The notes under the pieces: model-generated
Databases searched by the model: none
The model's input: only the letters and a program-made list of their open reading frames with translations
Told to the model about the DNA's origin: nothing
From: Patescibacteria group bacterium
GTDB lineage: Bacteria; Patescibacteriota; Microgenomatia; UBA8517
DNA length: 64,000 nt
Assembly (NCBI GenBank): GCA_038061225.1
Contig: JBBTZT010000003.1
Coordinates: forward strand, 184,515 to 248,514
Direction of reading: 5' to 3'
Part shown: positions 11,436 to 62,398 of the stretch, in pieces
How the letters are laid out: the number at the start of each line of letters is the position of its first letter
How positions within the stretch are numbered: the first letter of the stretch is position 1
Made by a program: the position numbers and the translations under genes

Positions 11436-11480
11436 ACTTTATGAATATTATCATAGTGAATAACTTGACTCAACAACAAT

Positions 11481-11509: not shown

Positions 11510-11526
11510 GCAGACATAATTAAAAT

Positions 11527-12615: not shown

Positions 12616-12628
12616 TACTTCTATTATT

Positions 12629-13072: not shown

Positions 13073-13087
13073 TTTTTTCTGCTATAA

Positions 13088-17557: not shown

Positions 17558-17563
17558 AATATT

Positions 17564-22818: not shown

Positions 22819-22819
22819 T

Positions 22820-29792: not shown

Positions 29793-29793
29793 T

Positions 29794-35948: not shown

Positions 35949-36024
35949 CATAAAACTTTCTATTATTATAAATGATGGTATTCTTAAAATTGAAACTGTT
36001 TAGATTCTTAGGGACAAAATTACT

Positions 36025-38240: not shown

Positions 38241-39294
38241 ATTATGGCCAGTATCTAAAACTACTTCCCCAAAGCAATTCTTAAAACTTTTTGATAATAA
38301 AACTTTAACTCAAATAACTTCATATAGATTTAACAAAATTCTTTCTTGGGATCATATATATGCAGTTACAACTTCTGATGAATATAAAAAGGAAATAATT
38401 AAGGAAGTCCCTGAATTTATACATAAAAATATAATTGTGGAGCCTATCAAGCGAAATACCGCAGCAGCACATGCACTTGGAGCCACATATATATTAAAGC
38501 AAGATCAAAAGGCAGTTATTTTAAATGAGGCAGCCGATCACCTTGTAGATCCGCAACGAGAATATCTCAAAAATTTATTATCCGCAGCTGAGGCAGTGTT
38601 TGAAAGAGACCTTCTCCTAGCCGTTGGTATTAAGCCAACATATCCAAATGTAGGATATGGATACATAAAAATAGGAGACAAGCTTTCGGAGATTAGCGAA
38701 AAACATATATTTAAGTTGGATGCTTTTACTGAAAAACCAAAACTTGAAGTAGCCAAAAAATATCTTGCTACCGGAAAATATTTCTGGAATGCGAATCAAT
38801 ATGTTTGGGGAGCACAAAGTTTCTTAAATGCTCTCGCAAAACATGCTCCTGAAATATCAAAAGGAATTAGTGAAATTTCTGAATCAATTGGTACAATGAA
38901 TGAGAAAGAAATAATATCTAAAGTTTATAAAAATCTGCCAGATGTTTCTGTTGATTATGCTGTAAGCGAAAAAGCAAAGAACTTCATAATGATAGTTGCC
39001 GATTATGGATGGACAGATATTGGTGATTGGAAAGAAGTTTGGGAAAATAGTCCAAAGGATCATGGAGGTAATGTAGTAATTTCAGACAAAGAAAGTGGCG
39101 GTGAAGTTATTAATATCGATACAACTGATGCATTAATTCATACAGATGGAAGACTGATTGCCGCGATTGATGTCGATAATTTAATCATTGTTGATACAAA
39201 AAATGTATTACTTGTTTGTTCAAAAAGCCATGCTCAATCAGTAAAAAAGATAGTAGAATTGTTAAAAAAACAAGGTAGAAAAGAACTTCTTTAA
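38203..39294 (+). CDS. manC: Mannose-1-phosphate guanylyltransferase (GDP-mannose pyrophosphorylase).
   Basis: ALIVVGGGGTRLWPVS matches the A.ILAGGSGTRLWPLS signature. The proposed start is the in-frame TTG at 38203, giving M-YALIVVGG. ATG 38152 would overlap the upstream GT by 89 nt. Confidence 0.7.
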   Translation: MYALIVVGGGGTRLWPVSKTTSPKQFLKLFDNKTLTQITSYRFNKILSWDHIYAVTTSDEYKKEIIKEVPEFIHKNIIVEPIKRNTAAAHALGATYILKQDQKAVILNEAADHLVDPQREYLKNLLSAAEAVFERDLLLAVGIKPTYPNVGYGYIKIGDKLSEISEKHIFKLDAFTEKPKLEVAKKYLATGKYFWNANQYVWGAQSFLNALAKHAPEISKGISEISESIGTMNEKEIISKVYKNLPDVSVDYAVSEKAKNFIMIVADYGWTDIGDWKEVWENSPKDHGGNVVISDKESGGEVINIDTTDALIHTDGRLIAAIDVDNLIIVDTKNVLLVCSKSHAQSVKKIVELLKKQGRKELL

Positions 39295-39299
39295 AAAAT

Positions 39300-39950
39300 A
39301 TGCTATTTGGAATTATAAAAAGAATAATAGATATCACTGCCTCAATAATATTACTTATTTTATTTTCTCCAATAATGCTTGTAACTGCTATTGCTATAAA
39401 AATAAAATCCCCCGGGCCGGTATTGGTTGAAAAAAATAATTCACATATGAAACGCATGGGAAAAAATGGAAAAATTTTTAGACTTTATAAATTTCGATCG
39501 ATGCTTGTTAACTCGGATAATTTAATAGTAAAAGATCCAAAATATAAAAAACTGTATAAAGAATGGAAAAATACAAATTATAAATTAATTAAGGATCCAC
39601 GAGTAACAAGACTCGGTAAATTTATAAGAAAATATTCAATTGATGAAATGCCACAACTTCTTAATGTTTTAAAAGGTGAAATGAGTTTGGTTGGTCCTAG
39701 ACCTTATCATTCGGATGAATTAGAAGAACAACAAAAAAAATATCCTGAGACAGATAAATTTGTCAAAGAAATGCATAAAGTAAAACCTGGAATAACTGGA
39801 TATTGGCAAGTTGAAGGAAGAAGTGATGTAAATTTTGACAAAAGAATTGAAATGGATGCTTATTATGCAAGAAAAAAATCTTTATTTTTTGATTTGTTGA
39901 TAATAGCAAAAACTCCATGGGCTATGATTAGTGGAAAAGGTGCTGTATAA
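39300..39950 (+). CDS. Initiating polyprenyl-phosphate sugar phosphotransferase (bacterial sugar transferase family, WbaP/PglC-like).
   Basis: KRIIDI..S..LL......V.AIAIK..SPGPV...Q.R.G.NGK.F...KFRSM...DEMPQLLNVLKGEMSLVGPRP. Confidence 0.85.
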   Translation: MLFGIIKRIIDITASIILLILFSPIMLVTAIAIKIKSPGPVLVEKNNSHMKRMGKNGKIFRLYKFRSMLVNSDNLIVKDPKYKKLYKEWKNTNYKLIKDPRVTRLGKFIRKYSIDEMPQLLNVLKGEMSLVGPRPYHSDELEEQQKKYPETDKFVKEMHKVKPGITGYWQVEGRSDVNFDKRIEMDAYYARKKSLFFDLLIIAKTPWAMISGKGAV

Positions 39951-39961
39951 TTTTTAAAAAC

Positions 39962-41908
39962 ATGGAAAATGAACCTGCCATCTTAATTCCGAAAATTGAT
40001 CCAGTCAAAAACGATATTGATTTAGATCAAAAACAAAAAGTAATAATTAAAACAAAATATATAATTATTTCCTCTGTAGTTTTATTTATTATATTAATTT
40101 TTTCTATACCTGTAATACTATTTGCAAATAAAGCTAAAAAAGTATATTTAGACCTTACACCTATTTTTTCAGCCTCAGAATTTACTGATATTGAAAAGAT
40201 AAAATCAGATTTTAATATTACTAAAAATTCAATCGCGGAACTCAAAAAATCATATAAATTAATTTCATGGATGAAAATTGTTCCTTTTGCAGGAACTTAT
40301 GTCAGTGATTTGGGACATGGTCTTAACGCCTCAACAAAAGTTTTAGAAGCTGGCGAAACAACTTTTGTAACACTTGATCCATTTCTTTCAGAGCTTGGTT
40401 TCAAGAAAAATGATGGTACGGAAAGTGCAGAGAAATCAGCTCAAGAGAGAATTGATTTTGTTGTTAATGCTATACCTGAAATACTTCCTAAGGCTGATGA
40501 AATCACAAAAAAATTTGAGGAAGCTGAAATAGAACTCTTACAGATTGATCCAAACAAATATCCTGAAAATTTTAAAGGAATAAACATCAGGGAAAAATTA
40601 AGGAAAGTCTTACTTTTATTTGAACAAGTTTCTTCGTATGTTTCAGAGAGTAAACCGCTTCTTGAAAGTACACCTTATCTGTTGGGAATGGAATCTGACA
40701 GAAATTATTTAGTCTTGTTTCAAAACGACAAAGAACTAAGACCAACTGGAGGTTTTTTAACAGCTTACTCAGTGATGAAAGTTTCAAAGGCAAAATTTGA
40801 ACCAGTTTCATCAGATGATATATATAATTTAGATGCTAAATATAAGCCTTCCTTTCCCGCACCTGACGCGATAGTCGATCTTATTAAAGGTCCGTATGTT
40901 TTATCTCAAAATATTAGGTTAAGAGATGTTAACTATAGCCCTGATTACAAAATAGCCATGGATTTGTTTTCCACTGAGGCAGAAAAAGTTGGAATGAAAG
41001 GAATTGACGGAATTATAGCAGTTGATACTGGTTTACTAGTTAATCTTTTAGATGCTCTTGGTGAGATTGGGGTTCCTGGATTTGGAAATTATTCAACTAA
41101 AATAGAACCAAAATGCAATTGTCCTCAGGTTATATATGAACTTGAAAGTTTTGCAGACATTGAAGGACCAATTATTTGGGATCCACTAACAGGTAAAATT
41201 ATTTTAAGACCTGCAAATTCTGACAATAGAAAGAAAATAATCGGACCCTTGATGAATTCAATACTAGCCAATGCTTTTGCCCAACCAAAAGAAAAAATAC
41301 CAACACTTCTAGATTCAATTTTTAAGTCAGTAGTAGAAAAACATGTTCTTTTCTATCTTTTTGATGACAAAGCACAAATGGCTGTTGAAGGTTTTGGTAT
41401 TGCTGGAAGAATTGAGACGTATGCCGGTGATTATCTTCATATTAACGATTCAAATTTGGGTGGTAGAAAATCAAATTTATATCTAAAACAAGAAGTTGAA
41501 CAAGAAATATCAGTAACTAAAGATGGAATGATTGAAAAAAGTTTAACTATTACTTATCAAAATCCAGAAAAATATGATGGTTGGCTCAACTCTGTTCTTC
41601 CAAACTGGGTCAGAGTTTATGTACCAGAGGGATCAAAATTAATAGCAGTAGAAGGTCTTGAAAAACAATATGATACAACTACAGAACTTAATAAAACAGT
41701 TTTTTCAGGTTATTTTAAATTAAGACCAGAGGGGGTTTCAAAAGTAACTTTTAAATATTTACTACCATTTAAAAGAGCTAGTGGCGATTATCGAATGCTT
41801 ATTCAAAAACAACCTGGAACCAATGCTCCACTTTATACTGTTAGAAGTAGTAAAACAGAAGAAGAATTTCTGTTAAATAGCGATAAAGAATTAAGAATTA
41901 AAATATGA
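39962..41908 (+). CDS. Membrane-anchored extracytoplasmic protein, DUF4012-like (family assigned from memory, unverified).
   Basis: Single N-terminal TM (IIISSVVLFIILIFSIPVILF) followed by about 600 aa hydrophilic. It is the last gene of the glycan locus. Confidence 0.3.
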   Translation: MENEPAILIPKIDPVKNDIDLDQKQKVIIKTKYIIISSVVLFIILIFSIPVILFANKAKKVYLDLTPIFSASEFTDIEKIKSDFNITKNSIAELKKSYKLISWMKIVPFAGTYVSDLGHGLNASTKVLEAGETTFVTLDPFLSELGFKKNDGTESAEKSAQERIDFVVNAIPEILPKADEITKKFEEAEIELLQIDPNKYPENFKGINIREKLRKVLLLFEQVSSYVSESKPLLESTPYLLGMESDRNYLVLFQNDKELRPTGGFLTAYSVMKVSKAKFEPVSSDDIYNLDAKYKPSFPAPDAIVDLIKGPYVLSQNIRLRDVNYSPDYKIAMDLFSTEAEKVGMKGIDGIIAVDTGLLVNLLDALGEIGVPGFGNYSTKIEPKCNCPQVIYELESFADIEGPIIWDPLTGKIILRPANSDNRKKIIGPLMNSILANAFAQPKEKIPTLLDSIFKSVVEKHVLFYLFDDKAQMAVEGFGIAGRIETYAGDYLHINDSNLGGRKSNLYLKQEVEQEISVTKDGMIEKSLTITYQNPEKYDGWLNSVLPNWVRVYVPEGSKLIAVEGLEKQYDTTTELNKTVFSGYFKLRPEGVSKVTFKYLLPFKRASGDYRMLIQKQPGTNAPLYTVRSSKTEEEFLLNSDKELRIKI

Positions 41909-42450
41909 AATTCCGAACATATTCCTCAGAGGGGATAATTTTATCCAGAAAAAATTATAGTGAGGTAGATAGAATATTAGTTGTATTATCAAAACATTTT
42001 GGTAAAGTAAGTTTGCTTGCAAAAGGAATTAGAAAAATAAAATCTAAAAAAAGGGGTCATTTGGAGATTTTTTCTAAAATAAAATTCTCAGCTGCTAAGA
42101 GTCATGGAATGGATATCGTTACAGAGGTCGATACATTAAATGACTTTGCCAAGGTTCGTACTAATTTGAATAAAATTTCACTTGCTTATTATTTTTGTGA
42201 AGTTGTAAACAAAATAACTCATGAAGATGGACATGCATCTACAGTTTATGACCTGTTGTCAACAGTTTTAGAGCAACTAAAGCAAGAAACAGAACTCAAA
42301 AAACTAAGACTTAAATTTATATACGATTTACTTACAAATATGGGTTATTGGCCTGTTGCTAAAAAATTAGTTGAAGCGGATATTGTATTAGATGATGTAA
42401 TAGAAAAAAAAATTAACTCTATTAGGGTTGGGAAAAAAGTATTAGAATGA
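41905..42450 (+). CDS. recO: DNA repair protein RecO (short form).
   Basis: N-terminal OB-fold pattern GIILSRKNYSEVDRILVVLSKHFGKVSLLAKGIRK. Confidence 0.55.
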   Translation: MKFRTYSSEGIILSRKNYSEVDRILVVLSKHFGKVSLLAKGIRKIKSKKRGHLEIFSKIKFSAAKSHGMDIVTEVDTLNDFAKVRTNLNKISLAYYFCEVVNKITHEDGHASTVYDLLSTVLEQLKQETELKKLRLKFIYDLLTNMGYWPVAKKLVEADIVLDDVIEKKINSIRVGKKVLE

Positions 42451-43779: not shown

Positions 43780-44451
43780 TTAATCGAAAGTTAGATGCTT
43801 AATGTTTTCTAATTCTTTTTGATGGTCTGCATTGTCTAGAACAAAATTTTTGTATAAATCTTCAGATTTAAAATTACATAAGATATCATCTTTTTTACAA
43901 AACGGAAACTTTGATTGACTTATATATTCTGGAAGTGACGACCATGAATAATTTATTAATTTATTACTATCTTTAACAATTCCAGATGAGTAAGGGTTTA
44001 GGTGAATATATCTAGATACGTGGAGCAATTGCTCTTCGCTGTCAATTCTAACAGCCTTAAATTGTCCTTGAAATAGAGGACCAATTCTCTCATTCTTTAT
44101 ATTAAAATATCTAGCATAACTGTTTTGTAAATTTGCTAGTAATTTCGAAATACCATTATCGTCATTTTGTTTTAATAGCAAATGAAAATGATTTGGCATC
44201 AAGCAATATGAAAGAATATCTGTGTGTTTTTTGTCTTTATCAAGTCTGTTCCAAATTTCTTGTCTTTGATCGCTAGCAAGTGTCATAAATTTTGAAAATT
44301 TAATTGGATAGTTAACAAAGTTATAGTATTTTAACAAAAGCAGGAATCGTCGATACTCATACTTTGATTTAAAAAGTGGACGTTTATTTACTCCACGATT
44401 AAATACATGATAGTAATAATTTTCTACAAGTGGTGAATAACGAGCAGGCAT
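43780..44451 (-). CDS. REP-associated tyrosine transposase (RAYT) / IS200-like Y1 HUH transposase.
   Basis: HUH motif in YCLMPNHFHLLL, and the catalytic-Tyr region SRYIHLNPYSSGIV, which matches YI..NPV of the TnpA_REP family. Confidence 0.65.
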   Translation of the reverse strand: MPARYSPLVENYYYHVFNRGVNKRPLFKSKYEYRRFLLLLKYYNFVNYPIKFSKFMTLASDQRQEIWNRLDKDKKHTDILSYCLMPNHFHLLLKQNDDNGISKLLANLQNSYARYFNIKNERIGPLFQGQFKAVRIDSEEQLLHVSRYIHLNPYSSGIVKDSNKLINYSWSSLPEYISQSKFPFCKKDDILCNFKSEDLYKNFVLDNADHQKELENIKHLTFD

Positions 44452-48609: not shown

Positions 48610-49878
48610 ATGGTTATGGCAAAACTATTAATAACTGGGGGTAAAAACTTGGAAGGAGAGATAAATATCTCGGGAAACAAAAATTCTGCTTTAAAACTTA
48701 TTCCTGCTGTACTTATGTCAAATAAAAAATCAATTTTAACAAACGTTCCGAATATTGCAGATGTTAGAGTTTTAATTGAAATAATAGAAAAATTAGGTGC
48801 AAAGATTAATTTTACAAATAATGTTTTAGAAATTGATCCTTCAACTCTAAATTCATATGAACCCGACTCTGATCTGTGTAGTAGAATTCGTGCTTCTGTT
48901 GTCCTTGCTGCTCCATTATTAGTTAGATTTGGAAAAGCAACATTAACCCCTCCTGGCGGAGATCAAATAGGAGATAGGTTGCTTGATACTCATTTCAGTT
49001 TGATGCAAAAATTAGGAGTTAACTTTACAAGAAAAGATGGGAAGTTTTATTTAACATGGGATAAAAATCCGCCAGCTGGCGGATCAATCAAAATATTTTT
49101 GGAAGAGGCATCGGTGACAGCAACAGAAATGGGTCTTATTATGGCCTCTTCAATGACAAATGAGGTAATTATTGAGGATGCAGCAGCAGAACCACACGTA
49201 GCTGATTTAATTAGTCTTCTTGTTAAAATGGGAGCTAAGATCAAAGGGTCAGGTACAAATACTCTTTTAATTTCTGGGGGTGAACTTAGTGGTGTTGAAC
49301 ATAAAGTAATGGCAGATCACATTGAAGGTGGCACTTTTGCAATTTTAAGTGCAATAACTAACGGGAATATAAAAATTAATAATTTTGAGCCAGAAAATTA
49401 TCATATGATATTGAACTATTTAAGTAATATGGGGGTTAAATATCAGATTGAAAAAGATAGTTTAATAGTTTTACCCTCAAATCTAAAAGCTAATAGACGT
49501 AAATTCCAGACAAGACCTTGGCCGGGATTTCCAACTGACCTGATGAGCCCATTTATTGTCCTTGCTACTCAAACTGAAGGTACAGTTCTCTGTCATGATT
49601 GGATGTATGAATGGAGAATGTTTTTTGTGGATGATTTAATTGGAATGGGAGCTAATATATTTATTGCTGATCCTCATAGAGTTATAGTTTCAGGACCAAC
49701 AAAATTAATGGCCGATAGACTTTTTTGCAAAGACATTAGAGCTGGAATCTCAGTAATTTTAGCTGCCTTGGTTGCAGAAGGAACAAGCACTATTGAAAAT
49801 GTAGAAGTTGTTGACAGAGGGTATGAAGATATAGAAAATCGATTAAAGTCTCTTGGAGCTTCTATAACAAAACAATGA
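48610..49878 (+). CDS. murA: UDP-N-acetylglucosamine 1-carboxyvinyltransferase MurA, with an Asp-for-Cys active-site variant.
   Basis: LLITGGKNLEGEINISGNKNSALKLIPAVLM. The active-site loop reads LTPPGGDQIGDRLLDTH, so the canonical Cys115 position carries Asp. Confidence 0.9.
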   Translation: MVMAKLLITGGKNLEGEINISGNKNSALKLIPAVLMSNKKSILTNVPNIADVRVLIEIIEKLGAKINFTNNVLEIDPSTLNSYEPDSDLCSRIRASVVLAAPLLVRFGKATLTPPGGDQIGDRLLDTHFSLMQKLGVNFTRKDGKFYLTWDKNPPAGGSIKIFLEEASVTATEMGLIMASSMTNEVIIEDAAAEPHVADLISLLVKMGAKIKGSGTNTLLISGGELSGVEHKVMADHIEGGTFAILSAITNGNIKINNFEPENYHMILNYLSNMGVKYQIEKDSLIVLPSNLKANRRKFQTRPWPGFPTDLMSPFIVLATQTEGTVLCHDWMYEWRMFFVDDLIGMGANIFIADPHRVIVSGPTKLMADRLFCKDIRAGISVILAALVAEGTSTIENVEVVDRGYEDIENRLKSLGASITKQ

Positions 49879-51776
49879 TTCAATTTGATTCAAGAAAAAT
49901 CAAAAAAGGTGACACTTTTGTAGCCATTAAAGGTCTGACTGTTGATGGTCACAATTATATTGAAGATGCAAAAAAAAGAGGGGCAGTTAAAATATATGAT
50001 CAAGGTGATACAAAACAGATTCTTGGTAAACTTGCTTCCGAGTATTATAAAAATCCAAGCTCAAAATTAAAAATAGTTGGAGTTACAGGTACGAAGGGAA
50101 AAACCACAACTTGTCATCTGATTCATCATATATTGACTCAAAACGGTAAAAAAACAGGACTCATATCAACAATCTCTGTTGATGGTTTTCATACCACTAC
50201 TCCTGATGTTGTGACTTTAAATAAAACTCTTGCTAAGATGGTTAATCAGGGTTATGAATATGTAGTTTTGGAGGTTAGCTCACATGGTATCGATCAAGGA
50301 AGAATTGCTGGTATCAAATTTGATATTTCGGTTCTAACAAATATAGCTCCAGAACATTTAGATTATCACAAAACATTTAAAGAATATAAACGTGTCAAAA
50401 TGATGTTTGTTAATTCAGCAAAATACAGAGTATTTAGTCCAAAAACTACTGATTTAAAAATTCTTAAAGGCGATTTTAACAACATAAATGCAGAAACAGC
50501 AATAGAAGTATGCAAGGAGTTGGGAATTAGTAAAGAAGAGTCTTTAAAAGTTTTAAAAAGTTTTAAACTTCCAAGTGGTAGGTTAGAAGAAATTAAAAAC
50601 AATCTAGGTTTCAGGATTTTTGTAGATTTTGCTCATACTCCAGATTCTTTAGAAGCTGTTCTTAAATATCTAAGAACTATAACTAAAGGTAGATTAATTT
50701 CTGTTTTTGGATGCGCGGGCGAAAGAGATCCAAGAAAAAGATCAAAAATGGGAAGAATCTCAACTAATTTAACAGATCTGTCTATTTTTACAGCAGAAGA
50801 TCCTAGAACTGAAAATATTTTAAAAATATTAAATCAAATGAAAAGAGGAGCTGTCAATAAAAAATATCTATCTATTCCAGAACGAGGGGAAGCTATTTCA
50901 TATGCCTTATCTGTTGCTCAAAACGGTGATATTATTGGTGTTTTTGGAAAAGGACATGAGAAAAGTATGTGTTTTGAAAATTATGAACATCCTTGGAGTG
51001 ATTATGATTTTATAATGAATCAAATTAATGGTTATAAAAATTTGACAGGAGTAATACTTGCTGGTGGAAGAGGGGCTAGGATGCACTCTAGTTTACCTAA
51101 AATTTTACATGCAATATCTGGTCGTCCAATGATTTCATTTTCCTTAGAAAATTTAAGAAATGCAGGAATAAAAAATATTGTTACTGTTTTTGGATATAAA
51201 AGGAATATAATTTTAAAAAGACTTTCTAAAAATATTAATTTTGCTATTCAACCAAAACCCTTGGGAACAGGAAATGCTGTATTAAATGCTTTTCCTAAAA
51301 TACCCAAAAAAACTAGTATGTTACTTGTAATAAACGGAGACGATAGTGCTTTTTATACACCTAAGACTATTAAAAATGTGATTGAACTTCATAAGAATAA
51401 TAATTCGATTTTGACTTTTGTTAGTCTTATACAGAAAAACCCAGCAGGTCTAGGAAGAGTTATCAGAGACATAAATGGTAAATTGTTAGGAATTGTAGAA
51501 GAAAAAAACGCAACAGAAAAACAGAAAAATATAAAAGAAGTAAATGATGGTTTATATGTTTTTAATTACAAATGGTTACAAAAAAATATTTTTAGAATTA
51601 AAAAAAATAGTGTTTCAAGCGAATATTATTTACCTGATTTAATCAAAATTGCTCTTAAAAATAAGGAAAAAGTCTCAGTTTATAAACTTCCTGATTCGTC
51701 GGAATGGCAGGGAATAAATACACCTGAACAACTTATAGAAGCTGAAAAAAAGATGCAAAAAAAACTTCAAAAATGA
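49875..51776 (+). CDS. murE: Fusion protein: MurE (UDP-MurNAc-L-Ala-D-Glu:diamino-acid ligase), residues about 1-385, plus a GlmU-type N-terminal sugar-1-phosphate uridyltransferase domain, residues about 390-633.
   Basis: Mur ligase part: IVGVTGTKGKTTT, EVSSHG, NIAPEHLDYH, VFGCAGERD, AEDPRTE, GKGHE. C-terminal part: GVILAGGRGARMHSSLPKILH...QPKPLGTGNAV...INGDD...EYYLPD. No hexapeptide acetyltransferase domain follows. Confidence 0.75.
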   Translation: MIQFDSRKIKKGDTFVAIKGLTVDGHNYIEDAKKRGAVKIYDQGDTKQILGKLASEYYKNPSSKLKIVGVTGTKGKTTTCHLIHHILTQNGKKTGLISTISVDGFHTTTPDVVTLNKTLAKMVNQGYEYVVLEVSSHGIDQGRIAGIKFDISVLTNIAPEHLDYHKTFKEYKRVKMMFVNSAKYRVFSPKTTDLKILKGDFNNINAETAIEVCKELGISKEESLKVLKSFKLPSGRLEEIKNNLGFRIFVDFAHTPDSLEAVLKYLRTITKGRLISVFGCAGERDPRKRSKMGRISTNLTDLSIFTAEDPRTENILKILNQMKRGAVNKKYLSIPERGEAISYALSVAQNGDIIGVFGKGHEKSMCFENYEHPWSDYDFIMNQINGYKNLTGVILAGGRGARMHSSLPKILHAISGRPMISFSLENLRNAGIKNIVTVFGYKRNIILKRLSKNINFAIQPKPLGTGNAVLNAFPKIPKKTSMLLVINGDDSAFYTPKTIKNVIELHKNNNSILTFVSLIQKNPAGLGRVIRDINGKLLGIVEEKNATEKQKNIKEVNDGLYVFNYKWLQKNIFRIKKNSVSSEYYLPDLIKIALKNKEKVSVYKLPDSSEWQGINTPEQLIEAEKKMQKKLQK

Positions 51777-52774
51777 GATATTATAGTCAAAAAATAGTTA
51801 CATTAGGTGGAGGAACAGGACAGTTTCATCTTCTTTCAGGTCTTCGTGAGCTTAATAATAATAGCCAAATTACTGCAGTAGCTGGCACTTGGGATAGTGG
51901 GGGAAGCTCGGGAAGGCTAAGAACTGAACTTGGAGTATTACCACCTGGAGATATTAGGCGTTGTTTGTTAGCGCTTATGGAGAGTGATAAACAACGAATG
52001 GTAGCTCAGACGCTTTTTGATGACAGGCTCGAAGATTTATCAAGTCCCTTTAAAGGACACTCTTTTGGTAATTTATTAACAGCAAGACTAGAAAATATCT
52101 ACAAAGGACAAGATCGTGGTGTGGATGCAGAAAGAGAACTTTTTAGAGTAAGAGCTAAGGTTATGCCTGTAAGTATTACAAATCTTCAATTAATAGCAGA
52201 AACATCAAAAGGAAATAAAATAGAAGGCGAGACAAACATAGATTTAAGAATTAAAGATAAAAATTATGATAAGGACGATAAAATTATTAGGATTTATTTT
52301 GATACAAGAGCTGATGTTAACCCAAAGATATTAGCAGAAATTAAAAATGCAGAAAAAATTGTCTTTTCTTCTGGTGATCTTTATACAAGTGTATTACCCC
52401 ATTTATTAGTTGATGGCGTTCGTGAAGCTATTGTTAAATCAAAAGCAAAACTTATATATGTTCTAAATTTGGCAACAAAACCCGGAGAAACTGATAAATA
52501 TAAAGCTTCTGATTTCTTGAAAGCTTTTTCTTTTTATCTCGACACACCAAATAGACTTGATGTGATGTTGGTTAATGATAATCACCTTGATTCAGAGATT
52601 CTTAAAATTTACAAAGACGAAGGACAGAACTTAGTTGAAATAGATGAAGATAAAGTAAAAGAAATGGAACCGAATTTAAAAATAGTTAAGAAACCTGTAT
52701 CAATTTATCTTAAAAAAGAACACCTACTTCGTCACGATTCAGAAAAACTAGCCGAAGCTATTTTAGAGATATAG
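51773..52774 (+). CDS. YvcK/GlmR (UPF0052, CofD-like) family protein.
   Basis: TLGGGTGQFHLLSGL...GTWDSGGSSGRLRTELGVLPPGDIRRCL. Confidence 0.8.
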   Translation: MRYYSQKIVTLGGGTGQFHLLSGLRELNNNSQITAVAGTWDSGGSSGRLRTELGVLPPGDIRRCLLALMESDKQRMVAQTLFDDRLEDLSSPFKGHSFGNLLTARLENIYKGQDRGVDAERELFRVRAKVMPVSITNLQLIAETSKGNKIEGETNIDLRIKDKNYDKDDKIIRIYFDTRADVNPKILAEIKNAEKIVFSSGDLYTSVLPHLLVDGVREAIVKSKAKLIYVLNLATKPGETDKYKASDFLKAFSFYLDTPNRLDVMLVNDNHLDSEILKIYKDEGQNLVEIDEDKVKEMEPNLKIVKKPVSIYLKKEHLLRHDSEKLAEAILEI

Positions 52775-52776
52775 AT

Positions 52777-53127
52777 TTAAACTTTGCTATTTAATGTCTG
52801 TTGCATCATATCTCGAGTATTCATGATTATTTGATTTATTCCATTATATGTTATTGCATCAGCTTGAATTGGTTCCAATACATCAATTTCGAAACCACTT
52901 TTCGAATTAAAAAATTGTGTCACGGGCAAGATAGGGATATTGAGATTTTTAGCAACCACAAAAGCTCCTTTGTGAAAGATGTCAAGGTCATATGGTCCAC
53001 CTTCATTGCGTTTTCCAGAAGTTCCTCCCTCGGGGTACATAACCACAGCCGATTTATGATCAATCATCAGTCTGTTAACATCGTCAATTAGTTTCTGAGT
53101 TCTATTTTGTCCATCAGCTGAAACCAT
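52777..53127 (-). pseudogene. C-terminal remnant of a PlsC-type acyltransferase; the N-terminal HX4D block is missing.
   Basis: YPEGGTSG is block III and PILPV block IV, but the ORF is only 116 aa and an in-frame TAA lies immediately upstream of the first Met. Confidence 0.4.
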
Positions 53128-53276
53128 TACAACTCCACAGCTTTTTTAAATCTTAGACAAAACTCTGGGTAACTCTATTGCTGATTCATGTATCTCCATG
53201 TTCAGTGCTCTAGAAATGGTCGAGAGAGACATATGTCTAATCGGAAAGGGTTCGTACTCTGTCATTGGATTGTCTT

Positions 53277-53486
53277 CTATCTTTGGCCCGAGGTTATTTT
53301 GGCCATACTCAATTCAGCCAATTCCTTGATTATCTGTTTATAATTTTTCTTGATTGTCGCTGTGTCCTCAGGATTTGAAATTGCTTCGTTAAAAAATGAT
53401 TGAAGTAATCTTGTAGACTGTTTTTCTAAAGGGTCTGAGTCTTTAGGTTGTCTGTTAAATGATGCGTTCATGCTTGTTTCGGTCAT
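53277..53486 (-). CDS. Hypothetical small protein.
   Basis: 69-aa ORF in a locally higher-GC segment, overlapping the upstream ORF by 4 nt. Confidence 0.2.
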   Translation of the reverse strand: MTETSMNASFNRQPKDSDPLEKQSTRLLQSFFNEAISNPEDTATIKKNYKQIIKELAELSMAKITSGQR

Positions 53487-53791
53487 TTTACTTGTTTTAC
53501 ATGTTTAAAAAGACTAAAGATTGGAAACGCTGTTGACTTTGGTCCTATATGTTGTGGTATTCCTGGTGCTGGCACAGGATTTATTATATCACCTTCCATT
53601 GTCTCAATTGCATAATGAACACCATCACCTTCTGTAGCTTCTGGAAAAGCAATAATACTTACAGAGTTTCCCCCAAACTCTTGTCTTAAGGTGTTGGCTA
53701 GTTTTGCAGACGAATTCCTGCAGTTATTTGCATCAGTAAGTGAATCGTCTAACAGTATTAACTCTCTGGCTCTTTCTAGAATACGTGACAT
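53483..53791 (-). CDS. Hypothetical small protein.
   Basis: 102-aa ORF in the same higher-GC segment; no recognised motif. Confidence 0.25.
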   Translation of the reverse strand: MSRILERARELILLDDSLTDANNCRNSSAKLANTLRQEFGGNSVSIIAFPEATEGDGVHYAIETMEGDIINPVPAPGIPQHIGPKSTAFPIFSLFKHVKQVK

Positions 53792-53800: not shown

Positions 53801-55570
53801 TTACTTTACTGTCACGCTTTTAGCCAGATTACGTGGTTTGTCTGGATCTGCACCTCGACTAACGCCTAAATAATATCCCAAAAGTTGACCTGCAATTATA
53901 TTCCCAAAAATTGTTAACTCTCCCATATCAGGAGTTTTAATTAGGTCATCAAATTCGGGAGATTCAAATGGAGATATTCCAATAATCTCACCACCCCTTG
54001 CCTTTAATTCGGATGCACTTGATAGTACTTCATTTTTTACCTCGTCATTACTTGCAAGTACAAAACATGGGGTACCTTTTTGAATTAGTGTTATTACTCC
54101 GTGTTTTAATTCTCCGGCTGTAAAACTTTCGGCATGAATATATGAAGTCTCTTTTATTTTTAGTCCAAATTCTAATGCTGCAGGATAGTTTAAATTTTTA
54201 CCAATTACATACATATGTTCATTGTGCTCAATTTTTTTAATAAGTTTGATAATGTTTTCAGATAATTCATTCCCCAGCCATTTACTAAGTTTATTCGATA
54301 ATTTTTGGATATTCTTCTTAGCTTGAAGATACTTTCCTTCAGATGCTTTTGATAACAAATAGAGTGTTGCGAGCTGAGAAGTAAGAGCCTTAGTAGAAAC
54401 AACAGCTATTTCTGGTCCTGCACCAATCGGAATAATTAAATCAACCAGTCTTTCCATTGTTGACCCCCTACTATTAACAATCGCAGCAGTTCTGACCCCG
54501 TATTTTATTGCTTCCTTTAATGCAATTAAAGTATCTGCAGTTTCACCTGATTGGGATATTCCGATGACAACTGAATTTTTATCACAAAATTTAGCAAATG
54601 GTTTAAATTCATATGCACCATATATTTCAGTTTGTATACCTGATTGTGCAAAAAGATATTTTCCAAATTGGGCACAATATGCAGCAGTTCCACAACCAAT
54701 TAATATAACTTTTTTACTTTCCTTAATGATTTTTGCCAATTTTTTAATTGCATCTTTATTTATAAGAGATGACTTTAATATTGTTTTTGGTTGTTCGAAA
54801 ATTTCTTTTAGTAAAAAATGAGGATATCCATTTTTTTCTGCATCTTCTAACTGCCAATCTAAAGTCTTAATTTTTGCATTTATTTGTTTTCCTGTTTTGA
54901 TGTTAAATATCTCAATACCGTCTTTTGTGATTTCTGCCCCCTCTCCATCTTCTAGAAAATGAACTTTGTTGGTGTATTTTAAAAATGCGGGTACATCGCT
55001 TGCTAGAAAATACTGTTTTTTTATTTCGTCAAATCCAACTACTAGAGGGGAACCGTTTCTGCAAGCAATTATACTTTGAGAATTTTTATCTAGTGCACAG
55101 ATTGCATTTGAACCATTTAGAGACATAAACACATCAAAAGTGGCTTGCCTAATTCCTTTTGTCTTTAACTCGTCTTCGATAAGATGACTTACTACTTCTG
55201 TATCTGTCTCTGACTTGTATGCATGATTATTTTTTGATAGCTTCAGTTTCAATTCATGGTAGTTTTCAATTATTCCATTATGGATTACAGCTATTTGGTT
55301 TTTACAGTCGAGATGAGGGTGGGCATTTTCATCAGTTATACCGCCATGTGTTGCCCATCGTGTATGAGCAAGAGCTATGTTTGTTTTTGTTATCTTTGAT
55401 AGTTTTGAAGAACCAATTTTACCTGTGTGTTTTTCTATTTTTAAAACTTGTTTATCGATATAGGAAATACCCCAGCTATCATAGCCACGATATTCGAGAA
55501 GTTTTAATCCCTCAAACACAATTTCGGGAGCGTCTGTACGCTTACCTATATAGGCGAAAATTCCACACAT
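53801..55570 (-). CDS. glmS: Glutamine--fructose-6-phosphate aminotransferase (glucosamine-6-phosphate synthase).
   Basis: MCGIFAYIG with the Ntn Cys2; two SIS domains; C-terminal KSVTVK; 589 aa. Confidence 0.9.
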   Translation of the reverse strand: MCGIFAYIGKRTDAPEIVFEGLKLLEYRGYDSWGISYIDKQVLKIEKHTGKIGSSKLSKITKTNIALAHTRWATHGGITDENAHPHLDCKNQIAVIHNGIIENYHELKLKLSKNNHAYKSETDTEVVSHLIEDELKTKGIRQATFDVFMSLNGSNAICALDKNSQSIIACRNGSPLVVGFDEIKKQYFLASDVPAFLKYTNKVHFLEDGEGAEITKDGIEIFNIKTGKQINAKIKTLDWQLEDAEKNGYPHFLLKEIFEQPKTILKSSLINKDAIKKLAKIIKESKKVILIGCGTAAYCAQFGKYLFAQSGIQTEIYGAYEFKPFAKFCDKNSVVIGISQSGETADTLIALKEAIKYGVRTAAIVNSRGSTMERLVDLIIPIGAGPEIAVVSTKALTSQLATLYLLSKASEGKYLQAKKNIQKLSNKLSKWLGNELSENIIKLIKKIEHNEHMYVIGKNLNYPAALEFGLKIKETSYIHAESFTAGELKHGVITLIQKGTPCFVLASNDEVKNEVLSSASELKARGGEIIGISPFESPEFDDLIKTPDMGELTIFGNIIAGQLLGYYLGVSRGADPDKPRNLAKSVTVK

Positions 55571-55794: not shown

Positions 55795-56547
55795 TTATTC
55801 TACTTGTTTGGCAGCAGCTTTGTCAATAAAAATTATTGTACTATTTCCAACATCTTCTTTTTTGAGGTATGATGCCGGATTTAAAGGAGATATGGAGTTA
55901 TGTAGTGCATCTGCAAGAATTTTTCCTTTCTCTGGACCGTACAATATCACGATTCTCTCTTCAGTTTCACCGATATTAGCTAAACCTTGTGTTATGGCTG
56001 TAGGAGGTGTGTCTTGTTTTCTTTCGATGGTATCTCTTTCAAAAGTTACTCGTGATAGCTGTTGAAAATGAGTACGCATGGTAAAAATATCGAAATCATT
56101 ACTGCTTTCTGTAAATCCTAAATGCCCTCCTGGACCTACTCCTAAGATACAAACACTTATATTTTTAACTAGTTTGTCATATCTATCTGCTTCTGCGTAT
56201 GGATTTTTAGCTAAACCATCAATCGTTGCAATATTTCTTCGGTTTATGTTTAACGGTTTAAAAATACGATCGTAAAGAAATTGTGGAAAACTAAATTCAC
56301 CATTATTAGGATATTGCCAGTATTGGTCAAGATGACGAGCTAAAATTCTACTAAAGTCGACACCAGTAAGTTTAAAATTTTTAGCAAAAGGGATCATTGT
56401 GTCACCTGTTGCGAATGTTACAGGAATATCTGGATTCTTTTGCACTTTATTTGCAAAATACTCTGCTGCACCTTTTGCTGTTAAATTCTCATCTGGATAA
56501 ACACGAATTTCGTGTATGTTAGGGTGAGAAATTCGTTCAAATTCCAT
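55795..56547 (-). CDS. nagB: Glucosamine-6-phosphate deaminase (NagB/6-phosphogluconolactonase family).
   Basis: TFATGDTMIPF...ILGVGPGGHLGFTES; 250 aa; lies directly upstream of glmS on the same strand. Confidence 0.75.
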   Translation of the reverse strand: MEFERISHPNIHEIRVYPDENLTAKGAAEYFANKVQKNPDIPVTFATGDTMIPFAKNFKLTGVDFSRILARHLDQYWQYPNNGEFSFPQFLYDRIFKPLNINRRNIATIDGLAKNPYAEADRYDKLVKNISVCILGVGPGGHLGFTESSNDFDIFTMRTHFQQLSRVTFERDTIERKQDTPPTAITQGLANIGETEERIVILYGPEKGKILADALHNSISPLNPASYLKKEDVGNSTIIFIDKAAAKQVE

Positions 56548-56834
56548 TTAATTAATCAATGTCTTCGTCTGTGCTGGCTGCACCCGGTTGTGCGATTGGG
56601 GATGCTGTATTTCTTTATGCTGCTTTTAGATAGTCTCTGGTTGTTTGATTAAGTTCATTTGTTTTAATTCTATCTAAATCAGGTAAACCTTTTGTGTTAA
56701 GAAGGTTAGCTTTCTTATAATCGCTAGTGACCTCTTCTTGTCTTTTATCAAAATCTGGTGACATTTGTGTGAATAATATTACTATAAGTACTAATTGTCA
56801 AATTTTTAAAAAATTGACGTATAATATAACAAAC

Positions 56835-58913
56835 ATGAAAAAAATACATATGATGGGGATTTCGGGTAGTGGTATGAGTGGGGTGGCTTCACTTGCTTCT
56901 AAAATGGGATATACGGTCACAGGTTGTGATTTAAAAACAGGTGGACATAATAAGAAGCATTTAAATGACATTGATTTATTAATAGTATCTCCTGCCGTTT
57001 TATATCAGTCTAAAGATGAGCCGGAGTTACTTATTGCTAAAAAGAAAAAGATTGTTATGACTTGGGAGGAATTTGTGGGTAAGTTTTTAATGAAAAATAA
57101 GTTTGTAATAGCAATTGCTGGGACTCACGGTAAATCAACAACTACGGCTATGATTGGAAAAATGATGATAGATAACGGGTTTGATCCAACCGTGTTAATT
57201 GGTGCAAAAATACCTGAATGGAATGGAAATAGTAGATATGGGAAGAGTAAATATTTTGTCATAGAAGCTGATGAATTTAATGATAATTTCCTACATTATA
57301 AACCTGAGATTGCTATTGTAAACAATATTGAGTTTGATCATCCAGATTATTTTAAAAATAAAAAACAATTTAAAGATAGTTTTGACAAATTTATAAAACA
57401 ACTTGTTGGTGAAAAAATATTAATTAGTGAAAAAGATAGTTTAAATAAAAAATTTAAATTAAAAGTTTTTGGTAAACACAACCAAAAAAATGCCAATATG
57501 GCTTATTTATTGGGTAAGAGATTGGGAATTAGTGATCAGAAGATTATAAAATCATTAGAAAATTTTAATGGTATAGGAAGAAGAATGGAAGAGATATCAG
57601 ATAATATTTTTGATGATTATGCCCATCATCCAACAGCCATTAAAACCACGCTTCAAGGTTTGCGAAAAAAATATCCAACTAAAAAAATATTAGCGATTAT
57701 AGAACCCCATGGGTATAAACGCACAAAAGCACTTCTCAATTTATATGATGGAGTATTTGACTCAGTTGATAAAGTTATAATCGGGCCAATTTATAAGGCA
57801 AGGGACGAAATTGATAAAACAATATCTTCTGAGATGGTTGCAAAAGCATCAAATCATCCAAACGCTAAAGTGACAAATGACGTTGCAAATATATCAAAAA
57901 ACAACAACGATATTGTAATTTTTATGGGTGCTGGAAATAGTAATCAATGGGCTTTAAATTTTGTAAATAATAACATTTCATTTAAAGATTTGACTACTTT
58001 AAAAATAGGAGGGAAGATAAAATATTTTTTTGAAGTAAAAAATAAAAAAGAATTAGTTCAGAAAGTTAATTTTGCGAAGAAAAATAAATTAGCAATAATC
58101 ATACTTGGTGAGGGAAGTGATATTTTAGCAGGAGATAGAGATTTTAGTGGAGTAGTTATCAAATATGTAAATAATAAATTACAAATAATAAATAATAAGG
58201 TGGTTGCGGGTGCGGGGATGATTTGGGATGATTTGGTAAAAGAAACAGTTGATAAAAATTTCTCAGGAATTGAGTGTTTATCGGGTATTCCTGGAACAGT
58301 AGGAGCAGCTCCAATACAAAACATTGGGGCTTATGGACAAGAACTCTCAGACACCTTTGTCAATTTGACTGCTTACGATATTGAAAATAAAAAATTTACT
58401 GAATTTAATAAAGATGATTGCCATTTTGGTTATAGAAAAAGTATTTTTAAAGATAAAAAATATTGGCAGAAATTTATTATCACTGATGTAGTATTTTTAT
58501 TAAATAAGAACAAAAATTTAGACTTAAATAAAATTCGGCAAGATATTTTAAAAATAAGAGCTGAAAAATTAGAAAATCCTAAAGATATACCAAATGCTGG
58601 ATCATTTTTTATTAATCCTTTTGTCAATCTTAAAACAAAAGAAAGATTAGAAAAAAAATATCCAGATATGAAATTTTATATTATAGGTGATAAGTTTAAG
58701 ATCTCTGCAGGGTATTTGATAGAAAAAACTGGTTGGAAAGGAAAAAGCTTAGGTCCTGTCAAGGTTTCTGATAAACATGCTTTAATTTTGACAAACCCGG
58801 AAGGGCGAGGAAATTTCAATGATATCAAAAAATTAGCATATGCAATAACTGGTGCTGTCTATAAAAAATTTGGTTTAAAACTTGAGCCTGAAGTACAATA
58901 TATAAATATATGA
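56835..58913 (+). CDS. murC: Bifunctional MurC-MurB fusion: UDP-MurNAc--L-alanine ligase joined to UDP-N-acetylenolpyruvoylglucosamine reductase.
   Basis: N-terminal MMGISGSGMSGVA...AIAGTHGKSTTTAMI...IEADEFNDNF is MurC. The C-terminal 280 aa, LKIGGKIKYFFEV..., GIECLSGIPGTVGAAPIQNIGAYGQE and GYRKS, match the MurB FAD-binding and substrate domains. The start is taken at ATG 56835 (MKKIHMMGISG). Confidence 0.85.
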   Translation: MKKIHMMGISGSGMSGVASLASKMGYTVTGCDLKTGGHNKKHLNDIDLLIVSPAVLYQSKDEPELLIAKKKKIVMTWEEFVGKFLMKNKFVIAIAGTHGKSTTTAMIGKMMIDNGFDPTVLIGAKIPEWNGNSRYGKSKYFVIEADEFNDNFLHYKPEIAIVNNIEFDHPDYFKNKKQFKDSFDKFIKQLVGEKILISEKDSLNKKFKLKVFGKHNQKNANMAYLLGKRLGISDQKIIKSLENFNGIGRRMEEISDNIFDDYAHHPTAIKTTLQGLRKKYPTKKILAIIEPHGYKRTKALLNLYDGVFDSVDKVIIGPIYKARDEIDKTISSEMVAKASNHPNAKVTNDVANISKNNNDIVIFMGAGNSNQWALNFVNNNISFKDLTTLKIGGKIKYFFEVKNKKELVQKVNFAKKNKLAIIILGEGSDILAGDRDFSGVVIKYVNNKLQIINNKVVAGAGMIWDDLVKETVDKNFSGIECLSGIPGTVGAAPIQNIGAYGQELSDTFVNLTAYDIENKKFTEFNKDDCHFGYRKSIFKDKKYWQKFIITDVVFLLNKNKNLDLNKIRQDILKIRAEKLENPKDIPNAGSFFINPFVNLKTKERLEKKYPDMKFYIIGDKFKISAGYLIEKTGWKGKSLGPVKVSDKHALILTNPEGRGNFNDIKKLAYAITGAVYKKFGLKLEPEVQYINI

Positions 58914-61216: not shown

Positions 61217-62398
61217 ATGACTAAGATTAAAATTGGAGTTTTATTTGGAGGAAGATCACCTGAGCATGAAATTTCAATAATTACGGGTATTCAGGTAATG
61301 GAAGTTCTTAATAAAGAAAAGTACGAAGTTATTCCAATTTATATTTCCAAAGAGGGTAGATGGATACAAGGAGATGAATCTTTTTTAAAGCCTTCGACTT
61401 TTGTAAATTTGGATACAGTTAAAAGTCAAAAGAAATCCTTAGTAATGTCTTCTGACCCTAACATAAAAGGTTTAATTTCTGAAAGTAGTGGGTTATCGCT
61501 TTCAAAATCTTTTTCTGCCCAAAATTTAGATGTAGTTTTCCCAGTATTTCATGGTAGATATGGTGAAGATGGATCAATTCAGGGATTGTTTGAAATATCT
61601 GGAATACCGTACGTTGGTTGTGATGTAGAAACGTCTGCAATCGGCATGGATAAAACGGTGAGTAAAAGAATAGCAAAAGCAATTGGAGTTCCAGTTCTGG
61701 AGGATATCTGGGTACTTTCTAGTCAATGGAAAAATGATAGGAAAAAAATATTATCTGAAATAAAAAATAAATTAAAATTTCCAGTATTTATTAAACCGTC
61801 ACGATTGGGATCTTCAATTGGGTTAAGCAAGGCCCATGATTTGAAAGAGATAGAGGAATCTTTAGACGTTGCTTTCTTTTATGATACAAAAGTTATGGTT
61901 GAAGAATCCATGGAAGACGCTCACGAAATTAATATTTCTATTTTAGGTAATAATCCATACGAAGTTTCAGCTTGCGAAATGCCTGTTTCATCAGGGGAAG
62001 TATTATCTTTTGAAGACAAATATACTTCCCAAAAAGGTCCATCGAAGGGGATGGCTTCCGCCAAAAGAATTATTCCAGCGCCTATTAAAGAAGTTACACG
62101 AAGAAAAATTGAAGAATATGCAAAAATGTTTTTTGCTGAAATTGGAGGACAAGGTATGGCTCGTATAGATTTCCTACTAAGTAAAGATGAGAGTCAAATA
62201 TATTTGAATGAAATAAATACGCTTCCCGGATCTGTAGCATTTTATTTGTGGAAGGAAGTAGGAGTTACTTTTGATGTGCTTGTAGATAAATTAGTAACTT
62301 TTGCACTGGAAAGAAGTGAAGAAAAAAATAACTTGGTAACAACTTTTAGTAGTAATATATTGTCAGGATTTAAAGGATTAAAAGGGATAAAGGGTTAG
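61217..62398 (+). CDS. ddl: D-alanine--D-alanine ligase.
   Basis: IGVLFGGRSPEHEISIITG...VFPVFHGRYGEDGSIQGLFEISGIPYVGCDV...ATP-grasp. Confidence 0.85.
   Translation: MTKIKIGVLFGGRSPEHEISIITGIQVMEVLNKEKYEVIPIYISKEGRWIQGDESFLKPSTFVNLDTVKSQKKSLVMSSDPNIKGLISESSGLSLSKSFSAQNLDVVFPVFHGRYGEDGSIQGLFEISGIPYVGCDVETSAIGMDKTVSKRIAKAIGVPVLEDIWVLSSQWKNDRKKILSEIKNKLKFPVFIKPSRLGSSIGLSKAHDLKEIEESLDVAFFYDTKVMVEESMEDAHEINISILGNNPYEVSACEMPVSSGEVLSFEDKYTSQKGPSKGMASAKRIIPAPIKEVTRRKIEEYAKMFFAEIGGQGMARIDFLLSKDESQIYLNEINTLPGSVAFYLWKEVGVTFDVLVDKLVTFALERSEEKNNLVTTFSSNILSGFKGLKGIKG

Follow-up and report, generated by a model that had tools for sequence, protein, structure and literature searches.

A conserved fusion of MurE to a GlmU-type uridylyltransferase domain in the dcw-type gene cluster of Patescibacteria

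The 64-kb stretch of DNA analysed here (positions 184,515 to 248,514 of contig JBBTZT010000003.1, assembly GCA_038061225.1, from an ultra-small bacterium of the Patescibacteria group), which we call the window, carries in its dcw-type cluster an open reading frame (ORF) in which the peptidoglycan ligase MurE continues directly into the N-terminal pyrophosphorylase, or N-acetylglucosamine-1-phosphate (GlcNAc-1-P) uridylyltransferase, domain of GlmU, abbreviated here to GlmU-N. We take this ORF to have come from a true gene fusion that is passed on vertically in a lineage of the candidate phyla radiation (CPR), and it most likely encodes a bifunctional MurE and GlcNAc-1-P uridylyltransferase. 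The identity of the domains, their conservation, the intact catalytic residues, the gene order and the confident predicted fold are established.

The murE::glmU-N chimera is one complete, unbroken ORF (49875..51776, +; 633 residues plus stop), recognized by Pfam, NCBIfam and its homologues. There is no in-frame stop or frameshift in the junction region, where the remaining two frames are stop-rich. At its start, the ATG and the murA stop codon share 4 nt (ATGA); at its end, the stop likewise shares 4 nt with the ATG of a downstream gene for a YvcK/GlmR-type, CofD-like protein that binds UDP-N-acetylglucosamine (UDP-GlcNAc). Because of these stop/ATG overlaps at both ends, murA, the chimera and the YvcK-type gene are almost certainly co-translated from one transcript. 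A scan for promoter and terminator consensus sequences between 44400 and 57000 gave counts no different from those of shuffled sequence, so the operon structure is read from the gene overlaps only. An internal start that would yield a free GlmU-N (M381, ATG 51015-51017) is not supported: M381 is not conserved and is without a well-spaced Shine-Dalgarno sequence, the sole GGAG lying 16 nt upstream within the conserved HPWSD codons.

The MurE module occupies residues 1-385 (49875..51029, +), as defined by NCBIfam, a phmmer search of PDB sequences and Foldseek. The Pfam domains within it are Mur_ligase (residues 1-42), Mur_ligase_M (70-183) and Mur_ligase_C (235-360). The whole protein scores 397 bits with the MurE model TIGR01085 (cutoff 257) and 394.6 bits with the MurE equivalog NF001126 (cutoff 373) in NCBIfam, and the MurE segment alone scores 400 and 397 bits, respectively. 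The three-domain Mur ligase fold is present, with UDP-substrate, ATPase and C-terminal amino-acid-binding domains, of which the N-terminal and central ones are shortened: compared with the MurE proteins of Escherichia coli and Thermotoga maritima there are ~25 fewer N-terminal residues, and ~45 central-domain residues after the carbamyl-lysine position are gone. The PDB search matched this part to the MurE entries 8f5d, 4bub, 2wtz and 1e8c, and it aligns to MurE of T. maritima, Mycobacterium tuberculosis, E. coli and Staphylococcus aureus and to the MurE-MurF chimera of Bordetella pertussis. Foldseek, applied to the MurE module of the predicted structure, gave a template modelling (TM) score, normalized to the target, of 0.70 for 1e8c, the entries 1e8c, 4bub, 2xja and 4c13 spanning 0.65-0.71. 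In an alignment of 34 diverse homologues the ATP-binding P-loop GVTGTKGKTTT (residues 69-79; 50079..50111, +) is invariant except for V70, which is at least 90% conserved, and EVSSH, EHLDYH, K175 at the carbamyl-lysine position, DFAHTP, GCAGERD, EDPR and GKGHE (G358-E362) are likewise invariant. The EDPR sequence (residues 308-311; 50796..50807, +) stands at the DNPR site of MurE and aligns with SDNPRSE and TDDPRGE of solved MurE structures; E308, D309 and R311 do not vary, and the T. maritima enzyme, a lysine ligase, reads DDPR there. Since the arginine of the DNPR-type motif is kept, meso-diaminopimelate would be a plausible substrate.

The GlmU-N module follows at residues 392-633 (51048..51773, +), with Pfam NTP_transferase at 392-629. 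Residues ~389-633 match a dozen GlmU equivalog models of NCBIfam (best 228 bits, E 1e-67), and model coverage is confined to positions ~2-245 of ~450, and to 2-241 for residues 392-633, which is the pyrophosphorylase half. The whole-protein GlmU cutoffs lie well above these scores (TIGR01173, 204-208 bits against 366.85; PRK14354, 225-228 against 450). Competing families score much lower than GlmU: MurU 53 bits, RmlA 56 and GalU 34, as do IspD and others, and the MurU model NF045761 (cutoff 250) matched only along the N-terminal 130 residues. In the PDB search the C-terminal part was matched to residues 5-243 of Streptococcus pneumoniae GlmU (E 3.5e-44) and to 16 other GlmU entries, and Foldseek superposed the module of the predicted structure on 1g97 with a root-mean-square deviation (rmsd) of 1.6 Å over 238 columns. 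No Hexapep or left-handed beta-helix (LbH) domain was found by Pfam after GlmU-N; residue 633 corresponds to about position 241-245 of GlmU, and the chain ends in a helix (617-632) equivalent to the start, or first turns, of the GlmU helical arm.

The residues of the uridyltransferase site are intact. Residues were mapped from E. coli GlmU, in a numbering that agrees with the literature, and from S. pneumoniae GlmU, as aligned in the PDB search. The nucleotide-binding signature LAGGRGARM (residues 395-403; 51057..51083, +) contains R402, the equivalent of E. coli R18, and is followed by K409 (K25). In E. coli/chimera numbering, R18/R402, K25/K409, Q76/Q459, G81-T82/G464-T465, D105/D490, G140/G527, E154/E542, N169/N557, E195, Y197/Y585 and N227/N615 are conserved in 119 or all 120 of the 120 fused homologues, and the same residues are equally conserved in 120 stand-alone relatives. 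R402 and K409 are invariant in the 120 fused proteins, and the equivalent arginine and lysine are found in 118 of the 120 stand-alone proteins, the other 2 having gaps. A preprint describes replacement of N169 by serine as weakening or crippling S. aureus GlmU (bioRxiv 10.64898/2026.06.23.733835). The preliminary description of this DNA, made from its letters and ORF translations, had proposed a single 633-residue ORF in which a complete compact MurE ligase is followed by the N-terminal uridyltransferase half of GlmU with no beta-helix acetyltransferase behind it, and all of this holds. The ORF is uninterrupted, the motifs quoted (GVTGTKGKTTT, AEDPRTE, GKGHE, LAGGRGARM..LPK, QPKPLGTG, NGDD and EYYL) are all in place, and the Pfam scan that it recommended returned Mur_ligase, Mur_ligase_M, Mur_ligase_C and NTP_transferase. 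The MurE models are passed above their cutoffs, the C-terminal region belongs to the GlmU family according to Pfam, NCBIfam, the PDB sequence search and the predicted fold, and the next gene is yvcK.

The two modules meet in a short junction (residues 376-391; 51000..51047, +), delimited by the alignment and by an AlphaFold2 model of the chimera built on the 34 homologues. The model has a mean predicted local distance difference test score (pLDDT) of 90.6 and a predicted TM score (pTM) of 0.88. At the junction a helix (376-384) is succeeded by a strand (387-395) that is beta-1 of GlmU-N, with pLDDT 85-95. Between W374 of the HPW motif and L395 of the LAxG motif, 119 of 120 homologues have the same spacing of 20 residues, and the intervening sequence is variable. 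Because of the fixed junction length and the high pTM, the model suggests that the chimera would be a rigid two-enzyme body.

The fusion is a conserved trait of a moderately diverse lineage and no assembly artefact. A search of 5.8 billion proteins found more than 120 clusters (90% identity) that cover 98-100% of the query at 54-100% identity, every one with the Pfam architecture of the chimera in one ORF; where they are named, the database labels are "Mur ligase family protein [Patescibacteria group bacterium]", "MurE" and Candidatus Woesebacteria. Residues 296-500, which contain the junction, were also used as a query. Among 1.84 billion representatives of 50%-identity clusters they had just 11 matches at E<=1e-30, of which ~10 span the junction, in proteins of 657-758 residues. 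A pattern scan of genome contigs with generic MurE patterns, which has little bearing on taxonomic breadth, added at least one further fused locus (L005). An artefactual origin of the fusion, be it chimeric assembly, loss of a stop through sequencing error or wrong gene calling, has in its favor that the source is a metagenome-assembled genome (MAG), and that in one relative (L086) murE and glmU-N are separate and 14 nt apart, so that one error could mimic a fusion. It is nevertheless effectively refuted, and we regard it as extremely improbable. The identical 633-residue protein is encoded on 8 contigs from independent samples and assemblers, among them an ENA contig of 157 kb that derives from Hainich groundwater and contigs of Logan assemblies made from two unrelated runs; the more than 120 homologues at 54-99% identity are all single ORFs, and 119 of 120 agree in junction length; and stops abound in both alternative frames across the junction. 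The worry about a chimeric assembly that accompanied the preliminary description is thereby removed, and the search of related genomes that it called for has located the fusion in abundance.

Both activities, their substrates and the reason for the fusion we infer as follows. The N-terminal MurE would add the third residue, probably a diamino acid, to UDP-N-acetylmuramic acid (UDP-MurNAc)-L-Ala-D-Glu, and, independently of this ligation, the C-terminal GlmU-N would convert UTP and GlcNAc-1-P to UDP-GlcNAc and pyrophosphate. The context fits UDP-GlcNAc metabolism, with murA upstream, the gene for the YvcK-type protein downstream and glmS nearby. UDP-GlcNAc would have to pass through MurA, MurB, MurC and MurD before reaching MurE, four steps away, and because the two reactions are non-consecutive, direct channelling between the active sites is not expected. 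The earlier proposal that the architecture would physically couple UDP-GlcNAc formation to a ligase step is right in that the two domains share one polypeptide, but channelling is not implied, and the coupling is more likely to be organizational than catalytic. The likely benefit would be fixed 1:1 expression, stability or assembly of a complex of Mur enzymes, together with genome streamlining. The acetylation performed by canonical GlmU would have to be supplied in trans or bypassed.

Several observations weigh against a bifunctional enzyme of this kind. The MurE module is unusually short. The position of E. coli GlmU Y103 is asparagine in 102 of 120 fused homologues, although S. pneumoniae GlmU itself has alanine there. 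The 64-kb window is without glmM, another mutase or an identifiable glucosamine (GlcN)-phosphate acetyltransferase that would supply GlcNAc-1-P, and a canonical glmU, if present outside the window, could make the GlmU-N domain accessory. A rival explanation is that the nucleotidyltransferase activates a different sugar 1-phosphate, such as MurNAc-1-P, in a MurU-like salvage that would feed UDP-MurNAc to the Mur ligases, or GlcN-1-P or Glc-1-P. In terms of the pathway, it would be sensible for a Mur ligase to carry a MurU-like activity, no acetyltransferase or glmM was seen in the window, the Y103 position varies, and archaeal GlmU-like enzymes are promiscuous. We nonetheless consider it unlikely, as the family scores favor GlmU by the wide interval given above, the GlcNAc-contacting residues T82, G140, E154, N169 and Y197 are essentially invariant, and the neighbors murA, yvcK and glmS encode proteins that act on or sense UDP-GlcNAc or GlcN-6-phosphate (GlcN-6-P). 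A further explanation is that GlmU-N has become a ligand sensor or regulator that tunes MurE to the UDP-GlcNAc or UTP pool, with a separate enzyme elsewhere making the bulk of UDP-GlcNAc. The rigid, fixed-length junction with its high pTM and the non-consecutive steps would suit such a role, and S. aureus shows that the main uridyltransferase is not necessarily GlmU (bioRxiv 10.64898/2026.06.23.733835). However, every catalytic and metal-binding residue is invariant in the fused family, which would be unexpected for a pure sensor, and in relatives without the fusion this operon encodes the domain as a separate protein of 248 residues. A regulatory GlmU-N therefore seems to us very unlikely, and a bifunctional MurE and GlcNAc-1-P uridylyltransferase is preferred.

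The relatives suggest how the fusion arose. In the Woesebacteria MAG locus L086 the order is ftsI, murE (432 residues), the separate glmU-N (247 residues, downstream of murE), murC, murB and murA, and in L085 it is murE, cofD, glmU-N, a Cu-oxidase_4 gene, murC, murB and murA. The Collierbacteria MAG locus L015 has an unfused compact murE, glmS, a small ORF, a nagB-like gene, cofD and a stand-alone glmU-N of 248 residues that also ends without LbH. A search with this stand-alone protein gave 1129 matches at E<=1e-10; the best 120 of these are all 179-283 residues long and without Hexapep, come from Collier-, Woese-, Moranii- and Microgenomates-labelled MAGs, and include several misnamed "bifunctional GlmU". 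Stand-alone genes that encode GlmU-N only are thus widespread in Patescibacteria, beside murE in the dcw cluster. Because they are so widespread, the loss of the acetyltransferase half was not caused by the fusion, and from these sequences it appears to be phylum-wide and the older event. It is likely that a truncated glmU without LbH was a resident of the dcw cluster directly beside murE, and that loss of the intergenic stop would then have joined the two through a short junction of fixed length. In L090 (6779..9055, JGI 3300035211) a full-size MurE of 506 residues is fused to GlmU-N in a protein of 758 residues, with murC and murB separate, and therefore the fusion is tied neither to the compaction of MurE nor to the fusion of murC with murB. 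Both fusions occur together in the window and likewise in L004, L087, L088 and the P0041 contig; murC::murB is fused in every murE::glmU-N relative examined except L090 and is unfused in L085 and L086. The reverse solution, GlmU-N::MurC, is found in P0261 (687 residues, Logan contig; murC model TIGR01082 338.7 bits against 335.1). Another protein, P0263 (414 residues), has the architecture Peptidase_C39::GlmU-N.

The C-terminal 242 residues of the chimera are homologous to the pyrophosphorylase domain of the bifunctional GlmU of E. coli, S. pneumoniae and M. tuberculosis (TIGR01173), and the S. pneumoniae enzyme shares ~36% identity, the close superposition noted above and the same catalytic and metal-binding residues. 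Unlike bifunctional GlmU, the chimera has no LbH domain for acetyltransfer and trimerization, is fused to MurE and scores below the equivalog cutoff; from the missing LbH domain it follows that it does not acetylate GlcN-1-P and presumably does not form the GlmU-type trimer. The Tr331 variant of E. coli GlmU is described as having uridyltransferase activity only (Pompeo 2001, as cited in PMC4358021), and in Capnocytophaga canimorsus the monofunctional GlmUCc, which produces UDP-GlcNAc in vitro, is essential (Renzi et al. 2015, PMC4358021). Tr331 and GlmUCc show that a GlmU uridyltransferase domain is functional without LbH. GlmUCc, present in C. canimorsus and many Bacteroidetes, is a GlmU-type uridyltransferase without the acetyltransferase half in peptidoglycan-making bacteria; it is active on GlcNAc-1-P plus UTP in experiments and is the best functional precedent. 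In contrast to the MurE-fused domain with glmS next door, it is a free protein of a GlcNAc-foraging Bacteroidete. A preprint by Fong et al. 2026 (10.64898/2026.06.23.733835) reports species with GlmU-N only among NagU-encoding bacteria and postulates an unidentified acetyltransferase. These bacteria have the same gap, a uridyltransferase part without acetyltransferase, but they are members of the PVC group, the Clostridia and other taxa, and the section consulted mentions neither Patescibacteria nor a MurE fusion.

Natural Mur chimeras include MurE-MurF in B. pertussis (PDB 8f5d), MurC-Ddl in Chlamydia and MurC/MurB in Verrucomicrobia (PMC10214165, PMC4803751). A 2023 survey by Shirakawa et al. 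lists the types MurE-MurF, MurC-Ddl, MurC-MurB, MurG-MurC, MurD-FtsW and MraY-MurG; it left out unidentified species and mentions neither GlmU nor CPR (PMC10214165). As in these chimeras, a Mur ligase is fused here to a peptidoglycan enzyme that is its neighbor in dcw, in one conserved ORF and tightly, with no long linker, the connection in MurE-MurF being equally linker-less. Several known types join non-consecutive enzymes (MurG-MurC, MurC-Ddl as well as MurD-FtsW), and the gains proposed are stability, fixed stoichiometry and assembly of the Mur complex (PMC10214165). What differs is the partner, which makes UDP-GlcNAc and works upstream of the entire Mur pathway, and this type is not in the 2023 survey. 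Both domains are from well-known families and fusions between dcw genes have been seen before, and the type of Mur chimera is new. Full-text literature searches found no relevant description of a MurE-GlmU fusion or of GlmU in Patescibacteria, CPR or Saccharibacteria, in agreement with the statement in the preliminary description that the arrangement was not known to be described. It appears to be undescribed in the literature searched, yet sequence databases contain many examples with non-specific labels. For murC::murB, known for Verrucomicrobia, no published description in Patescibacteria was found.

The supply of GlcNAc-1-P is a separate matter. As glmS stands next door, GlcN-6-P is implied to be made. 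Pfam scans of 56 window ORFs (54 of at least 110 residues plus two shorter ones of 102 and 116 residues) found no PGM_PMM (glmM) and no second GlmU, in accordance with the earlier statement that no separate glmU or glmM lies in the window. The only other NTP_transferase in the window is a ManC-like gene (38152..39294), and the only Hexapep protein (30914..31477) is a WcaF-like polysaccharide O-acetyltransferase. The latter was rejected as the missing GlmU C-domain, being WcaF-like, situated in a polysaccharide cluster and scoring 37 bits with glmU models with no significant stretch. A PlsC-like remnant (52786..53253, -) is an unlikely substitute acetyltransferase, as it consists of the C-terminal half only and carries a strain-level nonsense mutation.

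A better candidate is found among the relatives. In L004 (8765..9979, -), the P0041 contig and L088 (6001..7131) a gene lying divergently ~20 nt from murE::glmU-N encodes a protein of 340-404 residues with an N-terminal HAD domain, in which the DxDxT, S/T, K and DD motifs are intact, and a C-terminal GNAT domain. In P0288 (626 residues) the part after GlmU-N can be aligned over its full length to the HAD-GNAT protein (BLASTP E 5e-37), and further clusters (among P0265, P0257 and P0352) are GlmU-N::HAD or HAD::GlmU-N. Because of its fusion to GlmU-N and its synteny with murE::glmU-N, the HAD-GNAT protein is a candidate to take the place of the absent acetyltransferase, and perhaps of a mutase or pyrophosphatase too. 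Foldseek matched its predicted structure to generic HAD (2p11) and GNAT entries only, with no specific link to GNA1 or a phosphomutase. No homologue was detected in the window by tblastn (best E 3.2), and none of the database matches fell on contigs of the window's genome. For this organism, salvage of GlcNAc from a host, by analogy with C. canimorsus, would be an equally open alternative.

The dcw-type cluster of the window begins with mraZ (from 45376, +), rsmH (from 45806, +) and ftsI (from 46931, +), followed by murA (48610..49878, +; EPSP_synthase family, 220 bits), whose product is the first committed consumer of UDP-GlcNAc. The chimera and the YvcK/GlmR-type gene (51773..52774, +; TIGR01826 252 bits, cutoff 196) come next, and then glmS, encoding GlcN-6-P synthase (53801..55570, -; GATase_6/7 plus two SIS domains), which is convergent with the operon; the preliminary description was silent on both glmS and the YvcK-type gene. 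Between these two, on the minus strand, lie the acyltransferase remnant, with homology to residues 155-322 of a 333-residue Collierbacteria protein, and two small ORFs, one of which, directly beside glmS, has 102 residues and no family match (53483..53791, -). On the other side of glmS is a divergent gene of the NagB family (GlcN-6-P deaminase-like; 55795..56547, -; Glucosamine_iso; 101 bits with NagB models, below cutoff). The second chimera, murC::murB (56727..58913, +; 728 residues), contains Mur_ligase, Mur_ligase_M, Mur_ligase_C, FAD_binding_4 and MurB_C and scores 311 bits for murC and 282 for murB (NF000755, cutoff 277). Downstream of it are murD, murI and ddl on the plus strand and then, on the minus strand, a MurF-like Mur ligase gene (62395..63819, -; murF 194 bits, below the cutoff of 288.6), whose product has an N-terminal region of ~135 residues and no Pfam Mur_ligase_C match.

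The neighborhood of glmS is the same in Collierbacteria L015, whose NagB-like neighbor is 39% identical to that of the window. A 109-residue ORF beside glmS in L015 has the same position as the 102-residue ORF of the window and a weak likeness to it (tblastn E 0.014), and a cofD-like gene adjoins glmU-N or the chimera in L015, L085, L004 and L088. The arrangement suggests that the cofD-like gene, glmU-N and glmS form a conserved module of UDP-GlcNAc homeostasis. The PlsC-like remnant has an in-frame TAA (SKI*KSCG) in the window, L001 and L002 and a CAA (SKIQKSCG) in L003 (3178..3666), and the TAA is a nonsense polymorphism between strains. A gene for an IS200-like Y1 transposase (43780..44451, -) lies just upstream of the dcw cluster, between a class II tRNA synthetase gene (tRNA-synt_2b plus HGTP_anticodon) and mraZ, and is absent from that position in L004, L086 and L087. 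Positions 1..42000 form a very large glycan-biosynthesis region with more than 12 glycosyltransferases, methyltransferases, epimerases, ManC, a Wzy-like ligase, a flippase and several PMT_2/GT-C-like membrane proteins, including an ORF of 1147 residues (13762..17205); an ORF of 818 residues (17564..20020) has no Pfam match. Two overlapping ORFs in different frames (36025..36549 and 36539..37075, +) correspond to the Glyco_transf_4 and Glycos_transf_1 halves of a GT4 glycosyltransferase and look like a frameshifted or split gene.

GlmU is usually seen as the universal, essential, bifunctional route to UDP-GlcNAc and as an antibiotic target. The chimera and its stand-alone relatives indicate that a large uncultivated phylum keeps the uridyltransferase half only, wired into the dcw cluster and sometimes into the polypeptide of a Mur ligase. 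The chimera is a new type in the catalog of natural Mur chimeras, which are used as evidence for a cytoplasmic complex of Mur enzymes, and its rigid junction would suit structural work. Annotation can be corrected as well: the chimeras currently go under the names "MurE" or "Mur ligase family protein", the free 248-residue forms are often mislabelled "bifunctional GlmU", and because of such labels metabolic reconstructions of CPR bacteria miss the uridyltransferase or wrongly credit them with the acetyltransferase. The more interesting question opened by the chimera is how CPR bacteria acetylate glucosamine; the chimera also sharpens a question recently raised for other bacteria, namely what acetylates glucosamine phosphate in the absence of the GlmU C-domain, and the HAD-GNAT protein is a concrete candidate. 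We suggest, tentatively and with some doubt, that Patescibacteria as a group may make UDP-GlcNAc in a non-canonical way, with the LbH half lost and replaced by another module, for which HAD-GNAT is the best candidate, and with the uridyltransferase built into the apparatus of the Mur ligases in the form of MurE::GlmU-N or GlmU-N::MurC. If true, this would argue that the assembly of peptidoglycan precursors starts already at the formation of UDP-GlcNAc, and the gene in the window would show us part of a pathway architecture that is as yet undescribed, in a phylum accounting for a large share of bacterial diversity.

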